Shown here one piece after another: positions 1,558-32,702 of a stretch of 35,672 bases of DNA. The notes below the pieces were generated by a model. The model was not told the DNA's origin. It searched no databases and was given only the letters and a program-made list of their open reading frames with translations. The stretch is taken from the NCBI GenBank assembly GCA_042219705.1, contig JBDGPL010000130.1, forward strand, positions 1 to 35,672. Direction: 5' to 3'. Source of the stretch: Halobacteriales archaeon. Its GTDB lineage: Archaea; Halobacteriota; Halobacteria; Halobacteriales; Hikarchaeaceae. The translations under genes and the position numbers were made by a program. Each line of letters begins with the position of its first letter. Position 1 is the stretch's first letter.

Positions 1558-1867
1558 GCGGACTAGGCCGGGCGGTTAGGCCCCGCCCCGCGCCCGCAAT
1601 ACGGTCTTCAGCGGGGGCCGAACGCCGGGGGCGTCCGGGCCGACGGGCCCGGGCCCCGGGCGCCGACGTCGAAGCCTCGTCCGTCGGGGATGGCGGTCCG
1701 CGGCGCGCGACCGAAGGGCCGCGTCGTCGCGGTTAGCCGGCGGCACCGGGTCAGGCACGGAAGTGAGCAGCCCACCGCCGGACACCCGTCGCTCGACGGG
1801 TCGCGGGGTGGAGGAGGCAACCGGGACTACCCGGGCTCGAACGCCCGGGCCACCCCGGCCCGTCCGC
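1558..1867 (+). ncRNA. ffs: Signal recognition particle RNA (archaeal 7S RNA), about 310 nt
   Basis: The universally conserved helix-8 motif GGGUCAGG-CAC-GGAA-GUG-AGCAGCCC lies at about 1748-1772, with a GNAR tetraloop and the SRP54-binding asymmetric loop. The 5' end GCGGAC.GGCCGGG (1558-) is complementary to the 3' end CCCGGCCCGUCCGC (-1867), closing the long rod. The length and GC-rich helices fit archaeal SRP RNA, and the region lacks a credible CDS. Confidence 0.85.
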
Positions 1868-1893
1868 GCTCTTCACCCGCGCAGCCGCGGCGC

Positions 1894-2763
1894 TCAATCG
1901 GCGCCCGCGAGTCCCGAACCCTCGGCGAGTGCCACGCTTCCCGAGAGGTCCCGCTGGGGGAACGGAATGCTGATGTCGGCCTCGTCGAACCGGCGCTTGA
2001 CCTCCTGGACGTACTCCGAGCGGATGCGCACGAAGTCGGACCGGCCTGGGTCGGCGATCCAGATGCGGGCCTGCAGGCCGACGTAGGAGTCGGCGAGTTC
2101 GGTCAGCCGGACCGAGGGCGCCGGGTCGTCGAGGATCTCGTCGTGGTCCTCGGCGGCCTCGACGACGATCTCGCTGGCCGCCGCGACGTCGTCGTCGTAG
2201 TCGATGCCGAAGAGGAACTTCAGCCGGAGCGTGTCCTTCGCGACGGGGTTCTTGATGACGCCGTCGGTGAGCTGGGAGTTCGGTACGGTCAGGAGCTCGT
2301 TGTCGAAGGTCCGGACCCGGGTCACCCGGAGGCTGATGTCCTCGACGACGCCGGAATGGCCGTCCCACTCGATCCAGTCGCCGATGCGGAACGGCCGGTC
2401 GGTGTAAATGAAGACGCCGGCGACGAAGTTCTTGATGACGTCCTGCATGGCGAAGCCGATCGCCAGCGTCGCCGCCGCGGCGATGGTCGCCAGCGAGGTG
2501 AGGAAGTTCCCGTAGTCGGCGAAGCCGAAGGCGACCGCGATGCCGACGAACGCGATGACGATGGCGAGCAGCCGCGACAGCGGCTTCCGAGCGTGGTCGT
2601 CGAGCCCGCGTCGCTCCATGGCCCGGTCGGCCAGCGGCCTGACGACGACCCGGCCGACGAGCCAGACCGCCACGAAGGCGACCACGAAGTACAGCGCCTG
2701 GGTGACGGCCAGCGCGTAGGCCGCCGGCAGCGCGTCGACGAGGACCGGCAGCGGCTCGACCAT
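1894..2763 (-). CDS. Mechanosensitive ion channel, MscS family
   Basis: 289 aa with N-terminal TM helices followed by the MscS beta-domain signature (QDVIKNFVAGVFIYTDRPFRIGDWIEWDGHSGVVEDISLRVTRVRTFDNELLTVPNSQL). Confidence 0.9.
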   Translation of the reverse strand: MVEPLPVLVDALPAAYALAVTQALYFVVAFVAVWLVGRVVVRPLADRAMERRGLDDHARKPLSRLLAIVIAFVGIAVAFGFADYGNFLTSLATIAAAATLAIGFAMQDVIKNFVAGVFIYTDRPFRIGDWIEWDGHSGVVEDISLRVTRVRTFDNELLTVPNSQLTDGVIKNPVAKDTLRLKFLFGIDYDDDVAAASEIVVEAAEDHDEILDDPAPSVRLTELADSYVGLQARIWIADPGRSDFVRIRSEYVQEVKRRFDEADISIPFPQRDLSGSVALAEGSGLAGAD

Positions 2764-3008
2764 CAGTGGAACACCGCCGTGTGTCCGCGGGTCTCGACGA
2801 GGGTCGCCCCGACCCGGTCGGCGAGCGCCTCGGCCTGGGCCTCCGTCGAGGCGTCCGGGGCGCGCGCCGAGAGGAACTTCACCTTCACGAGCTCGCGGTC
2901 GTCGAGCTGGGCCGCCAGCTCGTCGGCGACCGCCTCGATGCCGCCCTTGCCGACCCAGACGGTGACGTCGAGGTCGTGGGCGCGCTTGCGGAGCTCCTGG
3001 ACGTCCAT
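2763..3008 (-). CDS. YhbY/CRM-domain RNA-binding protein
   Basis: The real start is the internal ATG (complement of 3006-3008): MDVQELRKRAHDLDVTVWVGKGGIEAVADELAAQLDDRELVKVKF.. This matches the YhbY-like CRS1 fold pattern (GK.G motif). The upstream part of ORF 2763..3371 is Arg-rich artefact. The stop overlaps the MscS start (TGATG). Confidence 0.8.
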   Translation of the reverse strand: MDVQELRKRAHDLDVTVWVGKGGIEAVADELAAQLDDRELVKVKFLSARAPDASTEAQAEALADRVGATLVETRGHTAVFH

Positions 3009-3082
3009 GGCTGGCCCGGGTATACCGCCCGGCGGATAAAGGGGCTGTGGTCGGGTCGGGCGCCAGCCGCGGCGCCGGACCG

Positions 3083-3523: not shown

Positions 3524-3802
3524 TCAGTCGTAGGGGTAGCGCTGCTGGTGGCCGCAGTCACACGTGACCACGACGTGGCCGTCCTGCAGCCGGTGGCGGG
3601 CGTTCCGGCCGACGACGAGGTAGCGGTCGCAGGCGTCGCAGGTGTGCCGCGTCAGCGCCCGGGGCCGGGACAGCCGGTGGCGTTCCGCGATCCGCCGGGC
3701 GCGGCGGACGTACCGGCGGGCGCGCTCCTCCTCGCCCGCGAGGGTCGCCTCGCGGGCGAGCTCGGTCAGTCGCTCGACGCGTTCGGCGGCGGTGGCGGCC
3801 AT
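3524..3802 (-). CDS. rnp4: Ribonuclease P protein component 4 (Rpp21/Rpr2 family)
   Basis: Internal ATG (complement of 3800-3802): MAATAAERVERLTELAREATLAGEEERARRYVRRARRIAERHRL..TRHTCDACDRYLVVGRNARHRLQDGHVVVTCDCGHQQRYPY. It has the N-terminal helical hairpin plus the C-terminal Cys4-type zinc ribbon of Rpr2. The rest of the 306-aa ORF is artefact. Confidence 0.85.
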   Translation of the reverse strand: MAATAAERVERLTELAREATLAGEEERARRYVRRARRIAERHRLSRPRALTRHTCDACDRYLVVGRNARHRLQDGHVVVTCDCGHQQRYPYD

Positions 3803-4042
3803 GGCCCTGGCGGCTGGAATCTGACCGGAGTACCGCGGTGGGCGGGGTAAAGGGTTGCCCCTCGAGCGGGGTGACGGACACGTCACCGTCGCGTTACGGT
3901 CCAGCGTCGTTCGCCGTCCCGATGCCTCGAAGCGAGGTCGACCGCGGCGGTGGTCGTAGGCCAGGAGTCCCATGGGCTGAAATCGGGCTGAGCCGTCGGC
4001 CGGTCCGGGGCCCGTTCTCCGACGCCGCGGGCCGGAGGTATG

Positions 4043-4048
4043 TTTAAC
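4043..4048 (+). promoter_or_regulatory. Candidate TATA box (GTTTAA) for the mttB-like gene
   Basis: An AT-rich hexamer in otherwise roughly 70% GC DNA lies 32-37 nt upstream of the ATG at 4080, which implies a very short leader. It is followed by the imperfect palindrome CCGCCGTACGGGCGG at 4056-4070. Confidence 0.45.
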
Positions 4049-4079
4049 TGCTGAACCGCCGTACGGGCGGCTATCGTTC

Positions 4080-5543
4080 ATGAGTCTCGACGTCGACCTC
4101 TCCAGCCAGGCCACGCCGTTCATCGACCGACTCGACGCGGACGGCGTCGAGGCCATCCACGAGGCGTCGATGGTCATCATCGAGGAGTACGGCATCCAGG
4201 TCAACCACGAGGATGCCCTCGAGTACTTCGAGGCGGCCGGGGCGACCGTCGGCGAGGACAACCTCGTGCGGGCCGACCGCTCGCTCGTCGAGGACAAGGT
4301 CGCGGAGGCGCCGTCGTCGTTCCTGCTGCACGCCCGCAATCCGGACAACGACCTGCGCGTCGGTGACGGTGACACCTTCCGGGCGCCCGGGTACGGCGCC
4401 CCGAACGTCCGGACCTTCGAGGACGGCCGGCGGAGCTCGACCATCGAGGACTACGAGCTGTTCATGAAGCTGGCCCAGACGGAGGCCCCGATCAACGCCA
4501 CTGGCTACACGGCCGCCGAGCCCAACGACGTCCCCCAGGAGGTCAAACACGTCGAGATGGTCAAGCGGTCGCTCGAGCTGACCGACCTCCCGGTGATGGT
4601 CTCGCCGTACGGCCGTGACCGGACCGACGCGAACCTCGAGATGGTCGGGCTGGCGGTCGGTGACCCCGAGCTCTCGAAACCGTACGCGATGGGGCTGATC
4701 AACACGGTGCCGCCCCGGACGCTGGACACCAAGATGACCGGCGGCCTGGTGGGCCTGGCCGAGCGGGGTCAAGTCCCGGTGGTCTCCTCGTTCATCCAGG
4801 CCGGCGCCTCCGGGCCCGGAACGATGGCCGGCGCGCTCGCGCTGGCGAACGCCGAGAACCTCCTGGGCATCACCCTGGTCCAGCTGGTCAACCCGGGCAA
4901 CCCGGCGGTCTACGGCGTGCCGTCGTCGAACATCGACATGCGCTACGGGTCGCTGTCGATCGGCAGCCCGGAGTCGGCGCTGTTCGCTAGCTTCGCGGGC
5001 ACGATGGGCCGCCACTACGGCGTGCCCTCGCGGGGCGGCGGCGGGCTGACCGACGCCAAGACGGTTGACTACCAGGCTGGCTTCGAGTCGACGCTCGTCA
5101 GCGCCGCGACGACCTGGAGCGGCGTCGACGTGATGCTCCACGCCGCCGGCATCCTCGAGTCCTACTCGACCATCTCCCCGGAGAAGTTCGTGCTCGACTG
5201 CGAGCTGCTGCGGTACCTCGACCGGTTCCAGGCCGGCTACGACATCAACGAGGAGACGCTCGCGCTCGACCTCATCGGCGAGATCGACCCCGACGACCAC
5301 TTCCTCTCCGAATCGCACACGCTGCAGTGGGCCGGCGAGGCCTTCATGATCCCCGAGGTCGTGGACAAGCGCTCCCACGGCGACTGGCGGGACGACGGCG
5401 AGATGACGGCCTTCGAGATCGGTCACCACCGCGTCCAAGAGCAGCTCGACGCCTACGAGCGGCCGGCGCTCGACGCCGACGTCCAGGCCGACCTCGACGC
5501 GTTGGCCGAGGCGCAGCGGGCCGAGATTCTCGACGGCGACTGA
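4080..5543 (+). CDS. mttB: MttB-superfamily (trimethylamine methyltransferase family) substrate:corrinoid methyltransferase, non-pyrrolysine type
   Basis: 487 aa, the full length expected for MttB-family TIM-barrel proteins. Family-typical blocks are present (EEYGIQV.HEDALEYF..AGA, APGYGAPNV, GLINTVPPR, SSFIQAGASGPGTMAGALALANAE, ESTLVSAATTWSGVDVMLHAAGILES). The frame is uninterrupted with no in-frame TAG. Confidence 0.85.
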   Translation: MSLDVDLSSQATPFIDRLDADGVEAIHEASMVIIEEYGIQVNHEDALEYFEAAGATVGEDNLVRADRSLVEDKVAEAPSSFLLHARNPDNDLRVGDGDTFRAPGYGAPNVRTFEDGRRSSTIEDYELFMKLAQTEAPINATGYTAAEPNDVPQEVKHVEMVKRSLELTDLPVMVSPYGRDRTDANLEMVGLAVGDPELSKPYAMGLINTVPPRTLDTKMTGGLVGLAERGQVPVVSSFIQAGASGPGTMAGALALANAENLLGITLVQLVNPGNPAVYGVPSSNIDMRYGSLSIGSPESALFASFAGTMGRHYGVPSRGGGGLTDAKTVDYQAGFESTLVSAATTWSGVDVMLHAAGILESYSTISPEKFVLDCELLRYLDRFQAGYDINEETLALDLIGEIDPDDHFLSESHTLQWAGEAFMIPEVVDKRSHGDWRDDGEMTAFEIGHHRVQEQLDAYERPALDADVQADLDALAEAQRAEILDGD

Positions 5544-5573
5544 GTGACGGCCGGAGCGTGACGGCTCCGGGCC

Positions 5574-6575
5574 TCAGTCCTCGGCGTCGAGGGCGGCCTC
5601 GACCTCGCGGACGGCCGTCGCGAGGTTCCCCACCTTCTCGTAGGCGGCCTTCCGTGGGAGCGGCTTCATGCCGCAGTCGGGCGTCAGGGTCAGCCGCTCG
5701 GCCGGGACGTGTTCGAGCGCGGTCTCGACCCTGGCGCGTATCTCCCCGACGGGGTCGACCCGCTTCGCCTGGGTGTCCACCACGCCGAACCCGACGTCGA
5801 GGTCGAGGTCGCGGCCGCCGAAGACGTCGGCCGGTTCGTCGGCGTCGTCGCTGGCGAACTCGAGGTCGACCTCGTCCACGGGGAACTCGAACAGGTCGGG
5901 CACCAGGTGCTGGTAGTTCCCCGAGCAGATGTGGACGCCCAGCCGGACGGTCTCGGGGACGGCCGCGTCGATGCGGGCGAGGCACTCCTGGGCGATGGTC
6001 CCGTGGGGCGACATGCCGAGGGCGGGCTCGTCGATCTGGATCCAGTCGGCGCCGGCGTCGGCCAACCGGCCGGCCTCGGCGGCCACCAGGTCCGCGAAGT
6101 CGTAGGCCAGCGCCTCGACGTCGTCGTAGGCCTCGAGGCTCCCGAACGACGCCAGGGTGAACGGGCCCGTGACGGTCGTCTTGACCGGGCGGTCGGCGAC
6201 CGCCTGGGCGAAGCGCTGGTCGTCGACCAGCCACGGCGCGTCCGATGAAACCGTGTCGGTCACGGTGGGCATCCGGGCGTTCCACCCCGTGCCGCCGTCC
6301 CGGTCGTAACCGTGGATGAACGGCGCGAAGTGCCCGACCATGTCCGTCCGGCGCTGCTCGCCGTCGGTGACGACGTCGAGGCCGGCCCGCTGCTGGTCGC
6401 CGATGGAGGCCTTGCAGGCGTCGTCCTCGGCCTCCTCGAGGTCGACCTCGTCGTCATCGGCGGCCAGCTCGCGAACGCGGTCGAGCCAGGCCGGCTGGGG
6501 GAAGCTCCCCACGACCGTCGCGAGCAGGAACGACGCGTGGGGGTGGTCCGGCGGCCGGAACCGGTCGTGGGGCAT
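5574..6575 (-). CDS. metE: Cobalamin-independent methionine synthase catalytic-domain homologue (core MetE-like, 333 aa)
   Basis: Internal ATG (complement of 6573-6575): MPHDRF..LLATVVGSFPQPAWL..DVVTDGEQRRTDMVGHF..VTGPFTL..WIQIDEPALG..LGVHICSGNY..LTPDCGMKP. The H-x-C and C-terminal Cys zinc-ligand pattern and the IDEPA motif are typical of the MetE C-terminal domain. The 109 upstream codons of ORF 5574..6902 are Arg/Pro-rich artefact. Confidence 0.85.
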   Translation of the reverse strand: MPHDRFRPPDHPHASFLLATVVGSFPQPAWLDRVRELAADDDEVDLEEAEDDACKASIGDQQRAGLDVVTDGEQRRTDMVGHFAPFIHGYDRDGGTGWNARMPTVTDTVSSDAPWLVDDQRFAQAVADRPVKTTVTGPFTLASFGSLEAYDDVEALAYDFADLVAAEAGRLADAGADWIQIDEPALGMSPHGTIAQECLARIDAAVPETVRLGVHICSGNYQHLVPDLFEFPVDEVDLEFASDDADEPADVFGGRDLDLDVGFGVVDTQAKRVDPVGEIRARVETALEHVPAERLTLTPDCGMKPLPRKAAYEKVGNLATAVREVEAALDAED

Positions 6576-6756
6576 CGTTGGCTGCTCGTCGTCCGCCGGG
6601 GAGGGAATAGCTTCCGCCCGCCGCCCCGGGGGTCGGACGCCGGCCATCTCGGGGGCGGGACACTGGAGGCCGCTGCCGGCGGGGCCCGGCCGACCCTCGG
6701 TATCCTTTTGGCGCCCCCTGGCAAACCCGGTCCGGTATGTGCCGCCGGGGGCCGGA

Positions 6757-8691
6757 ATGACGGACGAGACGTCGGTGCGGTTCCAGCCTTCCGAGCGGGC
6801 GGTCTCGGCCGCCCCCGGGACGACCCTGCTCGAGGCCGCCCGGGACGCCGGCCTCCGCATCGAGAGCCTCTGTGGTGGCGAGGGGCTCTGTGGAACCTGC
6901 AAGGTCGTGGTCGAGGCAGGGGCCGACTACCTGACGCCGCCGAGCCCGGCCGACGAGGAGCTGTTCGCCGAGGACCAGCTCGCCGAGGGCTACCGGCTGT
7001 CGTGCCGGGCGGCCGTCGACCGGCCCGACGGCGAGATCGCGATCACGATCCCGAGCTCGTCGATGGAGACGGGCGGCGTGGTGCTCACCGAGGGGGTCGA
7101 GCGCGACGTCGAGCTCGACCCCGCCATCAGGCACTACCGGCTCGAGCTCCCGCCGCCGTCCCTCGACGACCACCTCGCGGACCGCGAGCGGCTCCTGGCG
7201 GGCCTCACCGACGCCTACGGCCTCGACGTCACGCGGGTGGACCGGCTGGTCCAGCAGGAGCTGCCGAACCGGCTCAGGGAGCACGCGTCTCCCGACGGGC
7301 TGGCCGTGACGGCCACGGTCTACGACGGCGAGGAGGTCATCGACGTCTCGCCGGGGCTCGACGAGGCGGTCTACGGCCTGGCCATCGACGTCGGCACGAC
7401 GACGGTCGCCGTCTACCTGCTCGACCTCCGGAGCGGCGAGCGGCTCGCGGTCAGCTCGCGGCTGAACCCGCAGCACCGCTTCGGCGGCGACATCATGACC
7501 CGGATGCGGTACACCCGCCGCAACGCGGGCGGCCGCGAGGAGCTCCAGGCGGCCATCCTCGACGGGGTGAACGGGGCCATCGAGGAGGTCACCCGCGAGG
7601 CCGGCGTCGACCCCGACGACGTCTACGAGGCCGTCTGCGTCGGCAACACCGCGATGCACCACCTGTTCCTCGGCATCGAGCCCTCCTCCGTCGCCGGCTC
7701 GCCGTACGTACCGGCCAACCACGCCGCGCTGCAGGTCAAGGCCCGCGAGCTGGGCCTCGAGGTGAACCCCGCGGGATACGTCTCCTGGCTCCCCGTCAGC
7801 GGCGGCTGGGTCGGTCCGGACCACGTGGCGGTGCTGCTCGCCTCGGGCCATTACCGGCGCGATGAGCTCACGGTCTGCATCGACATCGGCACGAACGGCG
7901 AGATCTCCGTCGGCAACCGCGACGGGGTGTGGGTGACCTCCGCGCCGGCGGGGCCGGCCCTCGAGGGCGCCGAGATCACCCACGGCATGCGCGCGCAGGA
8001 CGGCGCCATCGACGCCGTCGACATCGATCCACAGACGTTCCAGCCGACCGTCGAGACCATCGGGGGTGGCCCGCCCAAGGGGCTCTGTGGCTCCGGCGTC
8101 ATCGACGCGCTCGCCGAACTGTTCGAAGTCGGCCTCGTGGACCGGCGGGGGCTGTTCCGGGAGGCCGTCCGACCCCACGAGCGGCTCCGCCGGGGCGAGG
8201 ACGACGTCTGGGAGTACGTTCTCGTGACCGCCGACGCGGCCGAGGACGATCAGGACATCGTCCTCACCCAGCACGATCTCCGGGAAATCCAGATGGCGAA
8301 GGCCGCCATCCAGGCGGGGACGCTCGTGCTGCTCGACGAGCTCGGCGTCGACGAGGTCGACCGGGTCGTCCTGGCCGGCGCGTTCGGGAACTACATCGAC
8401 CTCGAGTCCGCGTTGACCATCGGCCTCTATCCGGACGTCGACCCGACGTCGGTGGAGTTCCTCGGGAACGCGGCCGGGAGCGGCGCCCAGCTCGCGCTGT
8501 TGGACCGGGCGAAACGGGCGGAGGCCGACGCCATCGTCGACCAGGTCGACTACTACGAGATCGCCGGCACCGACGTGTTCCGGGACCACTTCATGGACGC
8601 GATGTACCTGCCCCACCGGAATTTCGAGCGCTATCCGCGGGTGAAGGCCCGCCTCGAGGCGCTCCGGCGCTTCGACGACGTGCCCACGTGA
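6757..8691 (+). CDS. Reductive activator of corrinoid enzymes (RACo/RamA-like): N-terminal plant-type [2Fe-2S] ferredoxin domain plus ASKHA ATPase domain
   Basis: Start at the ATG at 6757 (MTDETSVRFQPSERAVSAAPGTTLLEAARDAGLRIESLCGGEGLCGTCKV..YRLSCRA), giving a C-x4-C-x2-C...C 2Fe-2S motif. Downstream are ASKHA phosphate motifs (GLAIDVGTTTVAVYL, CIDIGTNGEISVG) and GLCGSGVIDA. The 147 upstream codons of ORF 6316..8691 overlap the metE-like gene and are artefact. Confidence 0.85.
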   Translation: MTDETSVRFQPSERAVSAAPGTTLLEAARDAGLRIESLCGGEGLCGTCKVVVEAGADYLTPPSPADEELFAEDQLAEGYRLSCRAAVDRPDGEIAITIPSSSMETGGVVLTEGVERDVELDPAIRHYRLELPPPSLDDHLADRERLLAGLTDAYGLDVTRVDRLVQQELPNRLREHASPDGLAVTATVYDGEEVIDVSPGLDEAVYGLAIDVGTTTVAVYLLDLRSGERLAVSSRLNPQHRFGGDIMTRMRYTRRNAGGREELQAAILDGVNGAIEEVTREAGVDPDDVYEAVCVGNTAMHHLFLGIEPSSVAGSPYVPANHAALQVKARELGLEVNPAGYVSWLPVSGGWVGPDHVAVLLASGHYRRDELTVCIDIGTNGEISVGNRDGVWVTSAPAGPALEGAEITHGMRAQDGAIDAVDIDPQTFQPTVETIGGGPPKGLCGSGVIDALAELFEVGLVDRRGLFREAVRPHERLRRGEDDVWEYVLVTADAAEDDQDIVLTQHDLREIQMAKAAIQAGTLVLLDELGVDEVDRVVLAGAFGNYIDLESALTIGLYPDVDPTSVEFLGNAAGSGAQLALLDRAKRAEADAIVDQVDYYEIAGTDVFRDHFMDAMYLPHRNFERYPRVKARLEALRRFDDVPT

Positions 8692-8860
8692 GTCGAACGC
8701 CGCCCGCGGGCCCGGCGCCGAACCAGACCGCGTCGGCGAGCGCGACGACCGTGGGCGCCGTGACCCCCGGCGCCTGTGGCTCGGGGACCTCCCGAAGCGC
8801 CGAAACGGTCCGCGGCCTCCGGCCGACCCAACGCGTCGAGTCGGGGAACGGGTCCCGTCC

Positions 8861-9775
8861 TCACCCCTTCCGGAAGATGCGGTACAGCGGGTGGTCCGAT
8901 GGCGGCCGCCGGTTCTCCCCCATCTGGGCCGCGTACCCGACGTAGGCGTCGGCCAGCGACGTGACTTCGTACATCCGGTCCGCGTCGTGGAGCGGACCGT
9001 AGAGGTTGAAGTCGGCGCCGGCGAAGGTGACGACGGCGTTCGCGACGGCCTGGCGGAGGAGCCGCGAGTCCTCGCTCAGCGGGTCGGTCAGCTCCCACCG
9101 AATGACCTCGTTGTGCGGCGAACAGCCCGCGGGCAAGCCGTAGCGGTCCTTGATCTCGTAGATGGCCTTCGCGACGAACCCGGAGTCGGGGATGTCGATG
9201 ACGGCCGGATCGACGATGACCTTCTCGACGCCGGCCGCCTCGGCCATCTCGAGGTTCTTCTCGAGGGCGTCGAACCGGCCCTGAAGGGTGAGGTTGCCGG
9301 TGTCGATGCTGAGCAGGACCGCCGCCTCGATTCCCGCGTCGGCCATCGCGTCGATCTCCATCTGGGCTTGCTTCGTACTCGACTCGATGGAGTTGTAGAT
9401 GACCCGGTCCTGCAGGCCGATTTCGCCGACGTGTCGGGCGGCCTCGGCCCGGATGGTGGGCGTCGGGCCGTCCATGAACAGCGGGAGGTCGCAGACCTCG
9501 GCCACGAAGTCGACGTGCTTGATGAGCGCCTCCGGGCTGTCGCCGATGACGTCCAGGACCGCCGGGTTGCCCGTCCGTTCGGAGACGGCCTCGACCTGGC
9601 GGATGGCCTCCTCCGCGGCTGCCTCGTCGAACTCGCCGGTCTGCGGGTCCTCGAGCACCCGGTCGCCCTTGTAGAAGAGGCTCCCGACCATGACGGTCGG
9701 GTGCTCGCCGGGCTGGCCGCCGAATTTGACGCCCGCCACCTCGTGGACCTCCTGCTCCGCCTCGAACGTGAACAC
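8861..9775 (-). CDS. mtrH: MtrH-family methyltransferase (tetrahydromethanopterin S-methyltransferase subunit H homologue; probable methylcorrinoid:pterin methyltransferase)
   Basis: FTFEAEQEVHEVAGVKFGGQPGEHPTVMVGSLFY..LFMDGPTP..VIYNSI..IVDPAVIDIP is the characteristic MtrH N-terminal and core pattern. The preferred start is the GTG at complement 9773-9775, which gives the family-typical MFTFE... N-terminus and sits 27 nt from a TATA-like CTTATA. The longest ORF extends to 9844. Confidence 0.8.
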   Translation of the reverse strand: MFTFEAEQEVHEVAGVKFGGQPGEHPTVMVGSLFYKGDRVLEDPQTGEFDEAAAEEAIRQVEAVSERTGNPAVLDVIGDSPEALIKHVDFVAEVCDLPLFMDGPTPTIRAEAARHVGEIGLQDRVIYNSIESSTKQAQMEIDAMADAGIEAAVLLSIDTGNLTLQGRFDALEKNLEMAEAAGVEKVIVDPAVIDIPDSGFVAKAIYEIKDRYGLPAGCSPHNEVIRWELTDPLSEDSRLLRQAVANAVVTFAGADFNLYGPLHDADRMYEVTSLADAYVGYAAQMGENRRPPSDHPLYRIFRKG

Positions 9776-9801
9776 GGCCGCCAATACGCCCGAGTTCGAG
9801 G

Positions 9802-9807
9802 TATAAG
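9802..9807 (-). promoter_or_regulatory. Candidate TATA box (CTTATA on the minus strand) for the mtrH-like gene
   Basis: TATAAG on the plus strand lies 27 nt upstream of the proposed GTG start at 9775, which fits a leaderless transcript. Confidence 0.45.
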
Positions 9808-9968
9808 TTTCCGTTCGCCGGTCCCGTCCTCGGGTCGGCGTCACGACGGCGGTGACCAGCTCGGCATCCGTCGAAACCGGCCGACCCGGCCGCCGACATC
9901 GTCCCTCACGGCGGGCAGCAATACTTATCCGGTTGACACGGCAACCAATACGGTGGTGAACGCTCCAA

Positions 9969-10700
9969 ATGGCTGACGACGAGCAGGACGATTATCTCGA
10001 CCAGGCCGAGGACCGGGCCGCCGACGTGGACGACCCGCTCCTGCTCGACATCCAGCAGGCCATCGTTGACCTGGACGAGGACCGCACCGAGGAGCTGACA
10101 CTGCGGGCCATCGACGAGGGGTACAATCCGGTCGACATTCTCGAGGACGGGCTGACCAAAGGCGTGAAGACCGTTGGCGACCGGTTCGGCCGGGGAGAGG
10201 TCTTCCTCCCCGAGCTGGCCATGGCCGCCGACTGCATGCAGGCCGGCGTCCAGCACGTCGACCCGTTGCTGGCGGAGATGGACCTCGGCGACGAGAAGTC
10301 CGGCGTGATGGTCATCGGCACCGTCGACGAGGACATCCACAACATCGGGAAGAACATCCTCGTCACGATGTTGAAGGCCAATGGCTTCGACGTCGTCGAC
10401 CTCGGGGTCGAGGTCCCCAACGAGGCGTTCGTCGAGGCGGTCGAGGAGCACGAGCCCGACATCCTCGGCATGTCGGCGCTGATGACGATGACGATGGACC
10501 ACCAGGAGGAGGTCATCGAGCTCCTCGAGGAGCACGGCCTCCGCGAGCAGGTCAAGGTCATGGTCGGCGGCGCGCCGACGTCGCCGGAGTGGCGCGACGA
10601 GATCGGCGCGGACGGCTACGGCGACAACGCCAGCTCCGCGGTCACCGAGGCGACGCGCCTGCTCGAGGAGCACCGGGCCGAACGACGGCAGCGCACCTGA
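9969..10700 (+). CDS. Methyltransferase cognate corrinoid protein (B12-binding cap domain plus Rossmann B12-binding domain; MtbC/MttC/MtgC-like)
   Basis: 243 aa. The helical cap (AIDEGYNPVDILEDGLTKGVKTVGDRFGRGEVFLPELAMAADCMQAG) is followed by VMVIGTVDEDIHNIGKNILVTMLKANGFDVVDLG, which carries the DxHxxG His-on cobalamin-ligand motif, then ILGMSALMT and VKVMVGGAP. There is an unusually acidic N-terminal extension. Confidence 0.9.
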   Translation: MADDEQDDYLDQAEDRAADVDDPLLLDIQQAIVDLDEDRTEELTLRAIDEGYNPVDILEDGLTKGVKTVGDRFGRGEVFLPELAMAADCMQAGVQHVDPLLAEMDLGDEKSGVMVIGTVDEDIHNIGKNILVTMLKANGFDVVDLGVEVPNEAFVEAVEEHEPDILGMSALMTMTMDHQEEVIELLEEHGLREQVKVMVGGAPTSPEWRDEIGADGYGDNASSAVTEATRLLEEHRAERRQRT

Positions 10701-13895: not shown

Positions 13896-14264
13896 TCAGT
13901 CGTCCTCGAGCGCGTCGGCGATGCGCTCGAGCTCCTCGCGGACGTCGCGGATCTCGTCGCGGACCCGTTCCATCTCCCGGGTGAACGTCTCGTCGTCGAG
14001 GCCGCCCCCGCCGCCGGGACCGCCGCCGCCCATGGCGCCGGGGCCGCCGCCCATCATGCCGCCCATCATCTGGGCGAAGGGGTTGCCGCCGCCCGGCCCG
14101 CCGCCGGGGCCGCCGCCGCCCATGCCGGGCGGCCCGCCGCCCATGGCCTCCCGGGGGTCCTCGCCCTCCTCGGCGCGCTGCTCGCGGAGTTCCTCGACGC
14201 GGTCCCGGAACGACTGCTCGTCCTCGGCGTCCTCGCCGCCGGATGCCTCCTCGTCGTCTGCCAT
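13896..14264 (-). CDS. Acidic protein with a central Gly/Met/Pro low-complexity domain flanked by charged helices, function unknown
   Basis: Start at the ATG (complement of 14262-14264): MADDEEASGGEDAEDEQSFRDRVEELREQRAEEGEDPREAMGGGPPGMGGGGPGGGPGGGNPFAQMMGGMMGGGPGAMGGGGPGGGGGLDDETFTREMERVRDEIRDVREELERIADALEDD. The flanks have haloarchaeal acidic composition, and the opposite-strand ORF is Pro/Arg junk. Confidence 0.6.
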   Translation of the reverse strand: MADDEEASGGEDAEDEQSFRDRVEELREQRAEEGEDPREAMGGGPPGMGGGGPGGGPGGGNPFAQMMGGMMGGGPGAMGGGGPGGGGGLDDETFTREMERVRDEIRDVREELERIADALEDD

Positions 14265-14348
14265 GGCCGGGCGTCGTTCCCGGCTCCGGAAAAGGGTTGG
14301 CATTCGGGGCGTCTCGGCCCGTCGGTCGGCCGGTTTCCGGCCCGGGAT

Positions 14349-24803: not shown

Positions 24804-27401
24804 CTACGACTCGCCGTCCAGGCGCCGCTGCCACGCCTCGACCTGCGTCATGAGCTCAGCGGGCGTCACGGTCGCCAGGTCGACCTCCCGGAGGGCGTCC
24901 AGCACGGCCTCGGTGTCAGCGTCCAGCCGCTCGTCATCCCCGTTCCCGTCGGCCGCCTGCAGCTCCCCCGACGACAGGTCGAAGACCACCTGCCGGGTGT
25001 CCGCGGCCCCGCCTCTGGCCTCGACGGCCTGCTCGCGGCGCAGCCGGTCGAGTACCTCGCGGGCCCGCTCGACGACCGGGGCCGGCACGCCGGCCAGCTC
25101 GGCGACGTGGATGCCGTAGGAGCGGTCGGTGGCGCCCTCCCGGACCGTCCGGAGGAACGTCACGTCGCCGTCGCGTTCGGTGGCCGCCACGTGGACGTTC
25201 GCCACGCGGTCGAGGTGGTCGGCGAGGCCGGTGAGCTCGTGGTAGTGGGTCGCGAACATCGTGAGCGCACGCACCTCGTTGTGGAGGTACTCGGTCGCGG
25301 CCCAGGCGATGGAGATGCCGTCGTAGGTCGCCGTGCCCCGGCCGACCTCGTCGAGGACGACCAGCGAGTCCTCCGTGGCCGCGTGGAGGATGTTCGAGAG
25401 CTCCTGCATCTCGACCATGAACGTCGAGCGACCCTCGGCGAGCTCGTCGAGCGCGCCGACGCGGGTGAAGATGCCGTCGACCAGGCCGATGCGGGCGGCG
25501 TCGGCCGGCACGAACGAGCCGATCTGGGCCAGCAGCACGACCAGCGCCGCCTGCCGGAGGTAGGTCGACTTGCCGCTCATGTTCGGGCCCGTGACGACGA
25601 GGAACCGCCGCTCCCCGCCGAGGTCGAGGTCGTTGGGCACGAACTCCGTCGTCTGCTCGACGACGGGATGGCGGCCCGCCTCGATGGCGACGCCATCGCC
25701 CCCGAGCTCCGGCCGGGTCCAGCCGTTGGCGGCGGCGTGCTCGGCCAACGCGGCCCGGACGTCCAGCCCCGACAGCGACCGGCCGACGGCCTGCAGCAGG
25801 CCGGCGGCGTCGGCGACCCGCTCGCGCAGGGCCTCGAACAGCTCGCGCTCGAGCGCCTCGCGGCGGGCCTCGAGCCGGAGGATCTCCCGCTCGCGCGACT
25901 CGAGCGCGTCGGTGGTGAACCGCTTGGCGTTCTTGAGCGTCTTGATCTCGCGGTAGGCCTCGGGCACCGCGTCGGCCTCGGACTTGCCGACCTGGAGGTA
26001 GTAGCCGTCGGTGCGGTTGCGGTCGACGGAGAGGTGGCCCAGGCCGTGGCGCTCGCGCTCGCGCGCCGCCAGCGAGTCCACCCACTCGCGGGCGTCCTCG
26101 AGCCGGTCGACGACGTCGTCGAGCTCGTCGTCGTAGCCCCGCCGGAACCGGTGGTCCGACTCGGGGTCGTCGGCCAGCGCGTCCTCGAGGCGCTCCCGGA
26201 GGTCGGCGGCCCGGTCCCGGTCGACGTCGTCGAACGTCGCCGCCAGCGGCGAGTCGGCGAGCGTAGGGTCGTCGGCGAGTCGGTCCGCCAGCTCCGGCAC
26301 CAGCCCGAGCGTGTCCCGCACCGCGAGCAGCGCCCGCGCGTCGGCGCTCCCGTGGACGGCCCGGCTGGCCAGCCGCTCCAGGTCGGCCGCGCCCTCGAGG
26401 GTCTCGCGGACGGCCTCCCGGGACAGCGGCGCCTCGACGAGGGCGGCGATCCCGTTCTGGCGGCGCTCGAGGCGGTCGGCGTCCCGTCGGGGCCGCTTGA
26501 CCCAGGCGGCGAGCCGCCGCGAGCCGGCGCTCGTGACCGTGTGGTCGATGACGTCGAGCAGGGTGGCGCCCTCCCCGCGGCCCATCGGCTCCGCGAGCTC
26601 GAGGTTGCGCTGGGTGGTCGCGTCGAGGACCACGTGGTCGTCAGCGCGGTGAGGCGTGAGCCGGGTCATGGACCGCTGCACGCCGAGGCCGGTCTCGGCC
26701 ACGTAGTCCAGGACGGCCCCCGCGGCGCGGACCGCGGCGTCGTCGAGGCCGAGGCTGTCGGCCGCGCCCTCGCCGAACTGCTCGGCGACCGCGTGGCTGG
26801 TCCGGCCGGGGGCGAAGGCATCGGCGTCGTGCTCGGTCACCCGCCGCTCGCCGTCCCCGCCCAGCCGGTCGAGCAGGGTGGCGTCGTCCCGCACCGTCGG
26901 CCCCGGCAGGACCTCGACGGGGTCGAACCGGTAGACCTCCGAATGGACGTCCTCGGGGGTGTCGACGGTCGTGACGTGGAACCGGCCCGTCGTGACGTCG
27001 GCGAACGCGATGCCGTAGCGCCCCGCGTGCTTCACGACGGCCGCCAGATAGCGCGCCTCGGCGCCGTCGGGCTCGAGCAGCGTGCCGGGCGTGACGACCC
27101 GGGCGAGCTCGCGGACGTGGCCGTCGTCCGTCTCGTGCTGGTCGGCGACGGCGACCCGGTAGCCCCGCTCGACCAGCGCCTTGAGGTAGGGGGTCAGCTC
27201 CGCGACGGGCACGCCGGCCATCGGATAGCGCTCGCCCCCGGAGCGCTTCTCGGTGAGCTTCAGGTCGAGCTCCTCGGCGACGAGCTCGGCGTCTTCACAG
27301 AAGAACTCGTAGAAGTCGCCCAGCTGCATCGCGAGGACGTCCGCGTCGGCGTCGGCCCGCAGATCGAGGTATTCGCCCACGATGCCCGACGCCTCGGCCA
27401 T
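24804..27401 (-). CDS. mutS: DNA mismatch repair protein MutS
   Basis: 865 aa with the N-terminal mismatch-binding region (LAMQLGDFYEFF), Walker A (VVTGPNMSGKSTYLRQ), and STFMVEM / DEVGRGTATYDG motifs. Confidence 0.95.
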   Translation of the reverse strand: MAEASGIVGEYLDLRADADADVLAMQLGDFYEFFCEDAELVAEELDLKLTEKRSGGERYPMAGVPVAELTPYLKALVERGYRVAVADQHETDDGHVRELARVVTPGTLLEPDGAEARYLAAVVKHAGRYGIAFADVTTGRFHVTTVDTPEDVHSEVYRFDPVEVLPGPTVRDDATLLDRLGGDGERRVTEHDADAFAPGRTSHAVAEQFGEGAADSLGLDDAAVRAAGAVLDYVAETGLGVQRSMTRLTPHRADDHVVLDATTQRNLELAEPMGRGEGATLLDVIDHTVTSAGSRRLAAWVKRPRRDADRLERRQNGIAALVEAPLSREAVRETLEGAADLERLASRAVHGSADARALLAVRDTLGLVPELADRLADDPTLADSPLAATFDDVDRDRAADLRERLEDALADDPESDHRFRRGYDDELDDVVDRLEDAREWVDSLAARERERHGLGHLSVDRNRTDGYYLQVGKSEADAVPEAYREIKTLKNAKRFTTDALESREREILRLEARREALERELFEALRERVADAAGLLQAVGRSLSGLDVRAALAEHAAANGWTRPELGGDGVAIEAGRHPVVEQTTEFVPNDLDLGGERRFLVVTGPNMSGKSTYLRQAALVVLLAQIGSFVPADAARIGLVDGIFTRVGALDELAEGRSTFMVEMQELSNILHAATEDSLVVLDEVGRGTATYDGISIAWAATEYLHNEVRALTMFATHYHELTGLADHLDRVANVHVAATERDGDVTFLRTVREGATDRSYGIHVAELAGVPAPVVERAREVLDRLRREQAVEARGGAADTRQVVFDLSSGELQAADGNGDDERLDADTEAVLDALREVDLATVTPAELMTQVEAWQRRLDGES

Positions 27402-29685: not shown

Positions 29686-31239
29686 CTACCGCCAGTCCGC
29701 GAACGTGCCCTCGATGAGCGTCCCGGCCTGGCGGGCGACGTAGGTCCGCTGCATGCCGGTGATGGCGGCTTCGAGGTCCGCCCCGTCGTCGATCCGCTCG
29801 CGGACCCGGTCGCGCTTCCAGTCGGCCGGGGTCAGCCGGTCCGTGACCCGCTGGCGGAGCGGCCCGAGGTAGCGCTCCGACTCGGCGGCGTCGAGCCCCC
29901 GCCGGGCGAGGCCGCGCCGCGCGGTCTCGAGGAGGTCCTTGTAGAGCTCGTCGGTGTCCGTCGTCCGGTCCCCGTCCGCGGTCACCCACTCGAGGTCGGC
30001 CCCGAGGCCGTCCTCGGCGGCGGCGTAGAGGTTGGCCTCGGCCGTCTCCCAGGCGAGCTCCCGGAGCGGGTGGTCCGACGCGTAGCACTCCTCGAGCAGG
30101 CCGGCGTAGACGGCGAGGAAGGCGAGGCTGTCGCGCACCGTCGGCTGGGCCGGGAGCGGTCGGAACTCGATCCGGGCGTGGGCCGTCGACCGGGACTCGC
30201 CCTCGAACACCGGCCGGACCCACCGCCAGAAGGAGCCGTGTTTGTGGGCGAAGTGGCGGAACGCGTCGTCGAATCGGCCTTGCTCCTCGAGCCACTGGGG
30301 AACGATGGTCTCGTCGGCGGCGATGAGGTCGACGGCGGCCTCGACCGAGTCGACGTCGGGCGGCAGGCAGACTTTCTCGGCCCGTGCGTCGGGGTTCATC
30401 GTCTGCTCGAAGACGGCCAGCCGGTTCTCGAGCCTGGCGTCGGCGAGCACGGTCGCGGCGTCCACGCCGTCGTCGTAGAGGTCCGGAGGGAAGAAGGGCG
30501 AGTTGACACCGAGGGCCAGCACCGGGCCGGCGACCCGGAGGGCGTACCGGAAGTACTCGGGAAGGTCCGGCGCGTGGGGGACCTGATAGTGGGGCTGGAT
30601 GGACGTGATGAGGCTCTCGGGCATCACGGTGTCGGCCGACAGGGAGACGTGGGGGGCATCGATCTCGAGGCCGACGCCGAGATCCGAGTTGGCCATCGCG
30701 TGGTACCGCACCGACTCGGACATGTTCGGCGCGAGGTGGACTCCGTCGACCTCGACGCTCTCGGTGAGGTAGTCCCGGGCCCGTTCGCCGGTCGGCGGGA
30801 CGGTCCACAGCCCGTCGGAGACGAGCCGGATGCCCTCGGGCCGGGTCTTGTCGAGCGCGGCGGACAGCCTGGCCTGGACCTCGGCCTCCTGGGCGGTGAG
30901 GCCGTACGCCGAGAGGGGCTGCGGGTTCGTGTTCATCTCGGCGTTGTGGAGGCCGAGCTCCTGCTCGAACCCGATGAGCTCGAGCAGCAGCCGGGGGACC
31001 CGGACCAGCGGAACGTTCGGCTCGGCGGCGGGGTCGACGTCCGCCGGCTCCGCGACGCCGTAGAACTCGTACTCGAAGCCGACGTTCGCCTGGGGGTTGT
31101 CGAACGCCCCGGCCCGCAGCCGCTCCTTCAGCTCCTCGGCCTCCCGTTGGACGCGAGTGTCGAACTCATCCCGGTCGACGTCGGTCGCGTCGGCCACCCG
31201 GCCGGCCAGGTCAGCAGTCATCGGCGGCCCGTTCGACAC
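29686..31239 (-). CDS. Glutamate-cysteine ligase family 2 (GCS2)-like carboxylate-amine ligase
   Basis: About 510 aa: GFEYEFY, ELGLHNAEMNTNP, SIQPHYQVP and ARIEFRPLPAQPT resemble the GCS2/YbdK-type ligase fold. GTG start at 31239 or ATG at 31221. It begins 9-27 nt after the stop of the upstream membrane-protein gene. Confidence 0.55.
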   Translation of the reverse strand: MSNGPPMTADLAGRVADATDVDRDEFDTRVQREAEELKERLRAGAFDNPQANVGFEYEFYGVAEPADVDPAAEPNVPLVRVPRLLLELIGFEQELGLHNAEMNTNPQPLSAYGLTAQEAEVQARLSAALDKTRPEGIRLVSDGLWTVPPTGERARDYLTESVEVDGVHLAPNMSESVRYHAMANSDLGVGLEIDAPHVSLSADTVMPESLITSIQPHYQVPHAPDLPEYFRYALRVAGPVLALGVNSPFFPPDLYDDGVDAATVLADARLENRLAVFEQTMNPDARAEKVCLPPDVDSVEAAVDLIAADETIVPQWLEEQGRFDDAFRHFAHKHGSFWRWVRPVFEGESRSTAHARIEFRPLPAQPTVRDSLAFLAVYAGLLEECYASDHPLRELAWETAEANLYAAAEDGLGADLEWVTADGDRTTDTDELYKDLLETARRGLARRGLDAAESERYLGPLRQRVTDRLTPADWKRDRVRERIDDGADLEAAITGMQRTYVARQAGTLIEGTFADWR

Positions 31240-31247
31240 CTGGGTGG

Positions 31248-32702
31248 TTAACTTGCGGGGCCACCCGTCCCGCCGATGACCCCGAATCGCAGGGCGAGTC
31301 CGGCGGCGACGGCCACGACGCCGAGGGCGACCACAACGCCGGACTGGACGAACACGGCGTCGGTCACCTGGCCAGCCAGCGCCAGCCCGAGGTCCGCCAC
31401 GGCCGGCGGGGCGTCACCGCTGAGCAGCACCGTCCGGAGCCGGGCGGGGAGCAGGGCGGCGCCGACGAGGCCGGGGAGGCCGCCGAGCACCAGTCCGACG
31501 CCGGCGCCGACGGCGGTGACGGCGACCGACCGGGAGGCGAGGTAGACCAGCCCGATGAGGAGGAGCGCGAGCAGCGGGAGCCCGATGGCGAGCCAGTCGA
31601 TGAGGACGACCGTCCGCCGGGCCTGCTCGAGGTTCTCCATCGCCGTCTGGTCGAGCTGCTCGTCGAGGTCGACCCGGTCGGGCGCCTGCTCGTCCAACCG
31701 GGTTTCGATCACGGTGGCGAGGCCCGCGGCGAGGTCGTCCGCCGCGGCCTGGAAGTCCGCCCGGTACGCCTCGTACGTGGTGTCGGCGAGGTAGCCGTCG
31801 ACCGCCACGAGCACGAGGTCGGCCATCGGCCGGGCGATTGCCGGGTCGGCGTCCCCAAGCGACTCGTTGAGCCGGTTCGCGACGTCGGTCCGGACCGATT
31901 CGCGCATGGCCGCCAACCGGTCGTCGACGGCGTCGGCGAGGCGGCCGTCGTCAGCGCTCTCGATTCGCTCGCGGATGGCCGCCCGGATCTCGGGCTCCCG
32001 CTCCTCGACCATCCTCGCCTTCTCGGCCTCGGTGTAGTCCGACGGGTCGTAGTCGTCGATGACCAGGGCGAGCCGCTCGTCATCCGTCGCGTTCCGGAAC
32101 GCCCGGTCGACGAGTCGGTCCAGGACCCGCTCGCGGATGTCGGCCCGGAACGCGGCGCGTTCGGACCGGAAGACGGAGGCGTTCTCGGCCATCCGGGCGG
32201 CCGTGACGAGGTCGATGGTGACGCCGTTCCGCTCGAGCGTCAGCTCCCGCCCGTCGCCCCCGACGACCCCGACGAGTTCGGTGGGCGACGCGTTCGCTAG
32301 CTCGGCCTCGACCGCGTCGGCGACGGCGCCCTTCACGGGCTCGAGGTCGACGGCGAGCTGCAGCTCGTCGGCGTTCCCGTGGAGGTAGGCGAGCGCCCGC
32401 TCGATGTTGGGTTCGACCTGGGACTCGAGGTAAGCGGGGTCGAGGGCGGCGCCGGCGACCGCATCGGGGTCGACCGGAAGCGGCGGGGACCCGCCGTCGG
32501 TCGACCCGAGCTCGCCCAGGGGGAACGACTCGACGACGAGCGGTTCCGCCTGGCTGTAGGCGTTCTCCTCCTCGAGCGTCGTGGTGACGAACCCGGGATT
32601 CAGGACGGTCCGGTCGGCGGCGACGAGGGCGTTCGCGGCGGCGAGGTCGACCGCCAGCAGGGCGACCAGCAGGACGATTGCGGCGGACCGGACGACACCC
32701 AT
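31248..32702 (-). CDS. Large membrane protein (N-terminal TM, about 330-aa acidic extracytoplasmic helical region, C-terminal multi-TM bundle), function unknown
   Basis: 484 aa with an N-terminal anchor (AAIVLLVALLAVDLAAA) and C-terminal hydrophobic helices (LIDWLAIGLPLLALLLIGLVYL, VGAGVGLVLGGLPGLVGAALL, VVALGVVAVAAGLAL). Confidence 0.65.
   Translation of the reverse strand: MGVVRSAAIVLLVALLAVDLAAANALVAADRTVLNPGFVTTTLEEENAYSQAEPLVVESFPLGELGSTDGGSPPLPVDPDAVAGAALDPAYLESQVEPNIERALAYLHGNADELQLAVDLEPVKGAVADAVEAELANASPTELVGVVGGDGRELTLERNGVTIDLVTAARMAENASVFRSERAAFRADIRERVLDRLVDRAFRNATDDERLALVIDDYDPSDYTEAEKARMVEEREPEIRAAIRERIESADDGRLADAVDDRLAAMRESVRTDVANRLNESLGDADPAIARPMADLVLVAVDGYLADTTYEAYRADFQAAADDLAAGLATVIETRLDEQAPDRVDLDEQLDQTAMENLEQARRTVVLIDWLAIGLPLLALLLIGLVYLASRSVAVTAVGAGVGLVLGGLPGLVGAALLPARLRTVLLSGDAPPAVADLGLALAGQVTDAVFVQSGVVVALGVVAVAAGLALRFGVIGGTGGPAS

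Follow-up and report, generated by a model that had tools for sequence, protein, structure and literature searches.

A haloarchaeal MttB-family methyltransferase gene in a five-gene corrinoid module, a likely counterpart of the glycine betaine methyltransferase MtgB

Glycine betaine is a dominant organic osmolyte of hypersaline systems, where its anaerobic breakdown is usually credited to trimethylamine (TMA)-producing bacteria and to methanogens. A cobalamin-dependent demethylation of betaine is described for Desulfitobacterium hafniense Y51, where three components work together: the substrate:corrinoid methyltransferase (MT1) MtgB, the corrinoid protein MtgC, and MtgA, a methylcobalamin:tetrahydrofolate (THF) methyltransferase (PDB 6SJ8; PMC7154762). 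Here we describe a related locus on a contig of 35,672 nucleotides from a Halobacteriales archaeon (JBDGPL010000130.1, assembly GCA_042219705.1; the whole stretch is referred to below as the window). It carries at 4080–5543 (+) an intact gene for an MttB-superfamily MT1 free of pyrrolysine (Pyl), and next to it four further genes of a corrinoid module. The enzyme is very likely the substrate methyltransferase of a corrinoid system that acts on a quaternary amine; that this amine is glycine betaine itself is probable, and MT1 is most likely a haloarchaeal counterpart of MtgB. As expected of an MtgB system, an MtgC-like corrinoid protein, an MtgA-like second methyltransferase (MT2) and an activase are encoded close to MT1, giving the same three-component logic. 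The module (4080–10700), which the original prediction had not noticed, is the most informative part of the window; its five genes and the non-coding elements read next to them are:

4043–4047, + strand: TATA-like TTTAA, a candidate promoter element read from the sequence, ~35 nt before the MT1 ATG
4080–5543, + strand: MtgB-like, non-Pyl MttB-superfamily substrate:corrinoid methyltransferase (MT1), 487 aa, from PF06253, residues and model
5574–6575, − strand: solo core MetE-like protein, 333 aa, from its Pfam match (Meth_synt_2), Zn ligands and homocysteine motifs
6576–6756, no strand: intergenic spacer of 181 bp separating the divergent MetE-like and RACo genes; third-position GC dips here
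6757–8691, + strand: RACo/AcsV-type reductive activase of corrinoid proteins, 644 aa, from domain matches
8861–9844, − strand: MtrH-family, MtgA-like methylcorrinoid:THF methyltransferase (MT2), from PF02007 and 6SJ8
9969–10700, + strand: MtgC/MttC-like corrinoid protein, 243 aa, from its B12-binding_2 and B12-binding domains

The MT1 open reading frame (ORF) runs from ATG to TGA through 487 codons with zero internal stops, hence zero in-frame amber codons, and its codon-position GC (0.69/0.44/0.93) has the signature of a real gene. Pfam PF06253 (MTTB; COG5598) matches residues 10–482 at 457 bits (E = 5e-137, cut-off 25), which corresponds to profile positions 26–498 of 500; TIGR02369, the equivalog of the Pyl-type TMA methyltransferase, reaches only 306 bits, below its cut-off of 525. 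The original prediction, which had called this a full-length member of the non-Pyl branch of the superfamily, is borne out on both counts. Dozens of haloarchaeal homologues of 481–487 aa align with MT1 across 94–100% of its length, which supports the start codon. Compared with its closest relative, in the metagenome-assembled genome (MAG) L001, MT1 shows 92% amino acid identity and a dN/dS of 0.15; this is an intact, Pyl-free MttB-family methyltransferase gene under purifying selection. Upstream, the TTTAA element sits in a divergent region of ~230–280 bp between the MT1 and RNase P Rpp21 genes. An antisense ORF at 4071–5438 (−) was rejected as a high-GC shadow that shares third codon positions with the real gene: long antisense shadow ORFs are typical of DNA with 72% GC, and in this window they inflate apparent gene lengths by 100–150 codons. 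The protein is strongly acidic, as the original prediction had seen: its pI is 4.3 and its net charge −49, with 16.8% Asp plus Glu and 1.8% Lys, where D. hafniense MtgB has a pI of 5.5, a net charge of −11 and a Lys content of 5.8%. The prediction had taken this acidity to hint at high-salt adaptation or at a different specificity; the former is right, the acidity being ordinary haloarchaeal salt-in adaptation and no special feature, while the latter is not favoured for MT1, though drift is seen in an orthologue of 72% identity (see below).

Among proteins of known structure, MT1 is closest in sequence to D. hafniense MtgB (2QNE/9YCE, 378 bits), followed by the Sinorhizobium meliloti protein 4YYC (251 bits) and the Pyl-containing MttB of Methanosarcina barkeri (7XCL, 153 bits). 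By BLASTP it is 41% identical to D. hafniense MtgB over 465 residues, with 61% positives. An AlphaFold2 model built with 35 homologues is confident (pLDDT 90.5, pTM 0.90) and predicts a TIM barrel with a C-terminal helical extension, as in the solved members of the superfamily. Its best Foldseek match is betaine-bound MtgB 9YCE (TM 0.93/0.95, rmsd 1.9 Å); the TM score is equally 0.93 to 2QNE, 0.91 to 4YYC and 0.89 to 7XCL.

The active site can be compared in detail because mutagenesis and a betaine-bound crystal structure show that Y97, R312, H348 and F356 of MtgB bind glycine betaine (Picking et al. 2026, PMC13080624). The trimethylammonium group is held through cation-pi contacts with Y97 and F356, the carboxylate by R312 and H348; in their kinetics the variants F356Y and Y97F match the wild type, and R312L is inactive (PMC13080624). 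We aligned the PDB sequences (lengths checked against HMMER coordinates) with 120 haloarchaeal homologues. The equivalents in MT1 are Y105, R318, H354 and Y362, so that all four betaine-binding residues are common to both enzymes with a conservative change of F356 to Tyr. The position of the Pyl residue of 7XCL is taken by Leu323 in MT1 and likewise by Leu in D. hafniense MtgB. A loss of active-site residues, which had been named as a sign of a non-catalytic paralogue, was looked for in this alignment and not seen. M. barkeri MttB has F, Y, Y and G plus Pyl at the same sites; it belongs to the same superfamily and fold as MT1, but its identity is 26–27% and all four substrate-contact residues differ. 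The second aromatic site is Gly in 4YYC and in Chloroflexota-type homologues, a bacterial sister group, and both aromatics are missing from the alphaproteobacterial-type homologues in the set (GRHG). Among the haloarchaeal homologues, 93 of the 120 have the YRHY-L pattern. The non-Pyl quaternary-amine enzymes MtpB, MtcB, MtyB and MthB of Eubacterium limosum (acting on proline betaine, carnitine, gamma-butyrobetaine and phosphocholine) are like MT1 in class and conserve the Arg equivalent to R312; by the published description they are set apart by lacking the conserved Y97/F356 pair (PMC13080624). As judged from the alignment, then, MT1 carries the motif that sets MtgB apart from the other characterised quaternary-amine enzymes. 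The original prediction had held that substrate specificity cannot be read from the sequence by eye. That stands as worded, but the choice of substrates has narrowed: sequence, model and gene context all point to glycine betaine or to a carboxylated quaternary amine much like it.

Paralogues with variant motifs (YRNY, GRHY, YRHH) also exist. The YRNY subclade is found in aerobic genera (Halopenitus, Halobacterium); in it, Asn replaces the His that binds the carboxylate. These proteins may prefer another substrate; in MtgB, H348N raises Km ~26-fold.

The partner genes extend the likeness to the D. hafniense system. The MtrH-like protein matches PF02007 at 257 bits, and its best PDB match is MtgA of the betaine pathway (6SJ8, 211 bits), whose catalytic residues Asp102 and Asn227 are retained in it, at D125 and N245 (ORF numbering). 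Its real start is probably a GTG near 9787, giving ~308 aa; orthologues are 302 aa long. The corrinoid protein carries the DxHxxG motif (D122-x-H124-x-x-G127), passes TIGR02370 (233 bits, cut-off 215.3) and scores below the cut-offs of the MtgC-specific models; it aligns end-to-end with MttC (7XCN_M, 188 bits). The activase has an N-terminal 2Fe-2S ferredoxin domain, a RACo linker, a middle domain and an ASKHA ATPase domain. Orthologues of it are called at 646–650 aa and start at the Fer2 domain, and this agreement in length confirms the boundaries at 6575 and 6757. Two longer ORFs that overlap each other by ~590 bp, 6316–8691 (+) and 5574–6902 (−), were rejected in their extended parts as antisense shadows, the real activase start being 6757 and the longer MetE-like frame being a shadow of the RACo frame. 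In MAG L001 the five module genes lie in identical order and orientation, alternating MT1 (+), MetE-like (−), RACo (+), MtrH-like (−) and corrinoid protein (+). The four module genes that could be compared with L001 have dN/dS values of 0.15–0.26 and are thus under purifying selection. Two side observations concern the module. At L001:4908–7217 the RACo match falls into three pieces in different frames, which suggests either that this long-read MAG contains frameshift errors or that the gene is decaying in it. The stretch from which the MtrH-like and corrinoid protein genes diverge (9780–9960) holds three copies of CAATAC near 9782, 9920 and 9946, two of them as CCAATAC, along with TATA-like TTATA/ACTTAT elements, possibly a shared regulatory site.

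Differences from D. hafniense are also evident. MT1 falls, in the tree described below, in a separate, exclusively haloarchaeal clade and is salt-adapted, and the module has a RACo-type activase with an N-terminal 2Fe-2S domain in a folate-using archaeal host. To our knowledge, nothing in the D. hafniense system corresponds to the core MetE gene of the module. A second proven MtgB, MV8460 of Methanolobus vulcani B1d, is likewise an archaeal, non-Pyl, betaine-specific MT1 with an adjacent corrinoid protein (PMC6855144). It differs in being 65% identical to D. hafniense MtgB, in lying in a bacterial-dominated clade, apparently by horizontal gene transfer, and in feeding coenzyme M for methanogenesis; the much more distant MT1 of the window would feed THF and/or homocysteine. 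A precedent for such a branched arrangement is MtgBCD(E) of Ruegeria pomeroyi, where one corrinoid protein serves a betaine methyltransferase of the MttB family along with methyltransferases for THF and for homocysteine, and thus both betaine demethylation and a split methionine synthase (Mausz et al. 2025, PMC12478193). Ruegeria uses RamA-type and DUF1638 reactivation proteins, of which DUF1638 recurs in a haloarchaeal operon described below (PMC12478193). The parts are non-homologous: the homocysteine module is of MetH/BHMT type and the THF module a pterin-binding MetH type in Ruegeria, where the window has a MetE-type core and an MtrH-type protein. From gene association, the haloarchaeal arrangement looks analogous to that of Ruegeria, with a MetE-type homocysteine module replacing the MetH-type one.

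The solo core MetE-like protein has the Zn ligands H215, C217, E239 and C301 and the homocysteine-contact motifs S24, E73 and D182, and these residues are invariant in 120 homologues. The homologues split into two tiers that 16 positions separate cleanly. The lower tier, at ~50% identity, comprises the catalytic subunit of the canonical split MetE of ordinary haloarchaea; it has a second Meth_synt gene adjacent (Halovivax) and reaches 534–538 bits on NF003317, above the cut-off of 406. The window protein falls in the upper tier, which is solo and scores only 300–329 bits. No N-terminal folate-binding half, fused or adjacent, accompanies the MetE-like gene in the window or at loci L001, L081, L088 and L089. 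At least 11 small contigs carry an MttB orthologue together with an upper-tier MetE-like gene. Price et al. (2021) list Halobacteria with only split MetE, plus a full-length MetE in Haloquadratum walsbyi, and predict that core methionine synthases draw methyl groups from corrinoid proteins (PMC7857596); Deobald et al. (2020) report a core MetE that uses methylcobalamin (PMC7005905). The core-MetE/MesB of Dehalococcoides, MesA of methanogens and MesC resemble the window protein: they are half-size, keep the Zn site intact, lack the N-terminal half that binds folate and are associated with corrinoid protein genes. They differ in their links, which are with CoFeSP or MtrA and with strict anaerobes (PMC7005905, PMC7857596). 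The window clade, in turn, is nearest to the haloarchaeal split-MetE catalytic subunit, yet it is linked to a system of MttB/MtgC type. Its gene association with the corrinoid protein is the basis on which we suggest that the MetE-like protein may accept methyl groups from it, a proposal that we judge evenly balanced. One lead only is offered by F144, which may replace the pterin-stacking Trp of canonical MetE; PMC7005905 gave no confirmation of this. One solo core MetE gene, at L081:10001–11056 of Halodesulfurarchaeum sp. HSR-GB, lies inside an A-type ATP synthase operon, between the B- and D-subunit genes.

From these observations we propose the following scheme, in which the identity of the substrate, the MetE step and both the direction and the partition of the methyl flow are inferred. 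Betaine would bind in the TIM-barrel pocket, its carboxylate on R318/H354 and its trimethylammonium group held by cation-pi contacts to Y105/Y362. The Co(I) form of the corrinoid protein (9969–10700) would attack one N-methyl group, which yields dimethylglycine and leaves the protein in its methyl-Co(III) form. The MtgA-like MtrH-family enzyme (8861–9844) would move the methyl group to THF, and the solo core MetE (5574–6575) would probably also move it directly to homocysteine, forming methionine. RACo (6757–8691) would re-reduce corrinoid that has been oxidised to Co(II), using ATP and a low-potential electron. Taken together this would be an undescribed haloarchaeal B12-dependent route from betaine to methionine, in which the MttB-family enzyme loads the corrinoid protein, the solo core MetE unloads it onto homocysteine and the same protein exchanges methyl groups with THF through the MtgA-like enzyme; we put forward this whole route tentatively, as possible but short of probable. 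If it exists, it would fulfil the function of betaine-homocysteine methyltransferase by corrinoid-dependent means, and it would add a further partner type for folate-independent methionine synthases. The module would then amount to a MetH-like methionine synthase whose parts share no homology with MetH and which takes betaine as a second source of methyl groups. If a corrinoid protein feeds the core MetE, the folate-independent methionine synthases would gain both a new lineage and a new source of methyl groups; the sharing of one corrinoid protein by an MtgA-like MT2 and a distinct, solo core MetE would, if confirmed, be a new link of betaine demethylation to methionine synthesis in archaea. 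As to betaine itself, a haloarchaeal cobalamin-dependent demethylase would be a non-TMA sink, yielding dimethylglycine and methyl-THF, and would explain what a large MttB clade found exclusively in haloarchaea does, whose members databases now label as trimethylamine methyltransferases.

Orthologues in other haloarchaea stand in several contexts. Three Halodesulfurarchaeum-type loci with MttB orthologues of 74–79% identity share a common island in the order FDH-like, cupin, MttB orthologue, FTHFS, FDH-like, several others, RACo, MtrH and MTHFR; MtrH and MTHFR were seen in the two of the three whose flank reaches far enough, and one island adjoins a [NiFe] hydrogenase. By its predicted content this gene set is one for oxidation of the corrinoid-bound methyl group via methyl-THF to formate and CO2, and a catabolic, methylotrophic role is therefore implied in these sulfur-respiring relatives. 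With FTHFS, MTHFR and FDH-like genes in the same island, betaine would be a methylotrophic energy source for them. An orthologue of 59% identity elsewhere has FTHFS and SHMT as neighbours. In a mid clade (58–65%), L088:4942–9510 and L089:2291–6826 hold a compact operon of overlapping MetE-like, RACo, DUF1638 and corrinoid protein genes, transcribed divergently from the MttB orthologue. DUF1638 is absent from the window module, and no MtrH-like gene is present at the two mid-clade loci.

Several points weigh against glycine betaine as the substrate of MT1, and most of them would fit another carboxylated quaternary amine (proline betaine, hydroxyproline betaine, gamma-butyrobetaine or carnitine) handled by the same class of enzyme and mechanism. 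The four-residue motif is a minimum set, not a sufficient one, and would suit proline betaine too (PMC13080624). The 41% identity between MT1 and MtgB is low beside the 65% shared by the two proven MtgBs of D. hafniense and M. vulcani (PMC6855144), and MtcB and MtyB, which are 53% identical, already differ in substrate preference (PMC8604678). In a rough neighbour-joining tree anchored by three PDB sequences only (MtcB, MtpB, MtyB, MthB, M. vulcani MtgB and Ruegeria SPO2108/2134 being left out), the haloarchaeal proteins do not nest with MtgB: they form a clade of their own, whose sister group holds MtgB and 4YYC together with bacterial homologues. The orthologue of 72% identity in Haloarculaceae H-GB2-1 (L083:10001–11464) and H-GB1-1 (L084:6750–8213) has Phe for the carboxylate-binding Arg ('VPSFSGSSL'). 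Its neighbours are genes for a Pro_racemase-family protein, SSF transporter, DHDPS-like protein, DAO, GcvT, EamA, IclR, BCCT, peptidase M19 and aldehyde dehydrogenase, so that the locus resembles an island for the catabolism of betaines of the proline or hydroxyproline type, in which the MttB enzyme would have been re-tuned. This exchange of Arg for Phe and the different catabolic island indicate, at the level of sequence, that specificity is labile within the haloarchaeal clade, and the variant-motif paralogues fit the same picture. No betaine transporter, MTHFR, FTHFS, FolD or dimethylglycine/sarcosine enzyme was found among the scanned ORFs of the window, and the metagenome runs with this sequence, from salt-lake, hypersaline-lake and soil samples, are DNA runs only. 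On the other side, MT1 has the aromatic pair reported missing from MtcB, MtpB, MthB and MtyB, D. hafniense MtgB barely uses proline betaine (PMC13080624), the partner MT2 has its closest match in the betaine-pathway enzyme MtgA, and no proline or carnitine catabolic genes lie near the window copy. We therefore consider another amine unlikely, and glycine betaine the probable substrate.

A different question is what the methyl group is used for. With the same enzyme and substrate, the module could be mainly anabolic: a split B12-dependent methionine synthase made of the MtrH-like protein, corrinoid protein, core MetE and RACo, an analogue of MetH for which betaine is an extra source of methyl groups. 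The core MetE inside the module, in the window as in L001, speaks for this, as do the mid-clade operon that lacks an MtrH-like gene, the window's lack of FTHFS, FDH and MTHFR near the module, the Ruegeria precedent of MtgC and MtgD in both betaine demethylation and methionine synthesis (PMC12478193) and the corrinoid-protein donors predicted by Price et al. (PMC7857596). Against it, the close orthologues of Halodesulfurarchaeum type lie in a clearly catabolic C1-oxidation island, one of them by the hydrogenase; the solo MetE of strain HSR-GB is placed elsewhere, in the ATPase operon; and C1-oxidation genes may lie outside the window. A mainly anabolic module is conceivable but, on this balance, rather doubtful. 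Two further readings have little left in their favour. That MT1 is a trimethylamine:corrinoid methyltransferase is what the names of its JGI/NCBI homologues ('trimethylamine--corrinoid protein Co-methyltransferase') and of the PF06253 family say, but this is effectively refuted by the missing in-frame UAG, the Leu at the Pyl position, the TIGR02369 score and the four betaine-site residues in which M. barkeri MttB differs (F/Y/Y/G); no tRNA gene, hence no pylT, was found in the window, and D. hafniense MtgB does not use TMA (PMC13080624). A non-catalytic or decaying paralogue might be imagined since several paralogues are possible per haloarchaeal genome (H-GB1-1 has at least three), yet it is disfavoured to the point of being very improbable by the intact ORF, the dN/dS of 0.15, the conservation of all active-site residues tested, the confident model and the conserved synteny with cognate partners.

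The module enzymes are salt-adapted versions of a well-studied system, and cultured isolates with betaine-suggestive names carry orthologues (Halodesulfurarchaeum sp. HSR-GB, Halalkaliarchaeum sp. AArc-GB and the Haloarculaceae H-GB strains). Such names alone are unusable as evidence for betaine, and that 'GB' stands for betaine enrichment is a guess only; they were dropped as support in view of the H-GB orthologue with its Arg-to-Phe change and different gene context. Another of the H-GB1-1 paralogues carries the exact MtgB motif YRHF beside a corrinoid protein. Literature searches on haloarchaeal betaine demethylation, on strains HSR-GB, AArc-GB, H-GB1-1 and H-GB2-1 and on sulfur-respiring haloarchaea found nothing relevant; subscription journals lay outside the search, and specialists may know of such work.

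The haloarchaeal origin of the window is supported by its archaeal markers (aTrm56, TFE-alpha, DUF2110, the archaeal signal recognition particle (SRP) RNA and RNase P Rpp21), its GC content of ~72% and the close homologues of MT1, which are all from Halobacteria. The MutS gene at 24804–27401 (−) is 79–84% identical to the nearest metagenome contigs and at most 67% identical to every named haloarchaeal genus. Identities that low place the host, as far as sequence goes, in an uncultured haloarchaeal lineage; the closest relative among genome collections is a MAG from Salar de Ascotan. The list of MutS matches includes further isolates with 'GB' in their names, Natronococcus sp. A-GB1 and Natronolimnohabitans sp. 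A-GB9. The corrinoid module is a discrete island, since housekeeping genes flank it on one side (SRP RNA, MscS, YhbY, a PNPOx-like gene and Rpp21) and glycosyltransferases on the other. One RNA feature of this flank is:

1556–1869, + strand: archaeal SRP RNA, Rfam RF01857, 163 bits

An ORF at 1690–3039 (+) overlaps this RNA and was rejected as spurious, and an ORF at 3524–4444 (−) is real in its Rpp21 part only. Farther from the module, a small ORF at 13896–14348 (−) without a Pfam match has long repeats rich in Gly, Pro and Met. Two acidic ORFs at 29686–31239 (−) and 31248–32702 (−), of 517 and 484 aa, likewise match no Pfam family; the 484-aa protein has a signal-like N-terminus and C-terminal hydrophobic segments.

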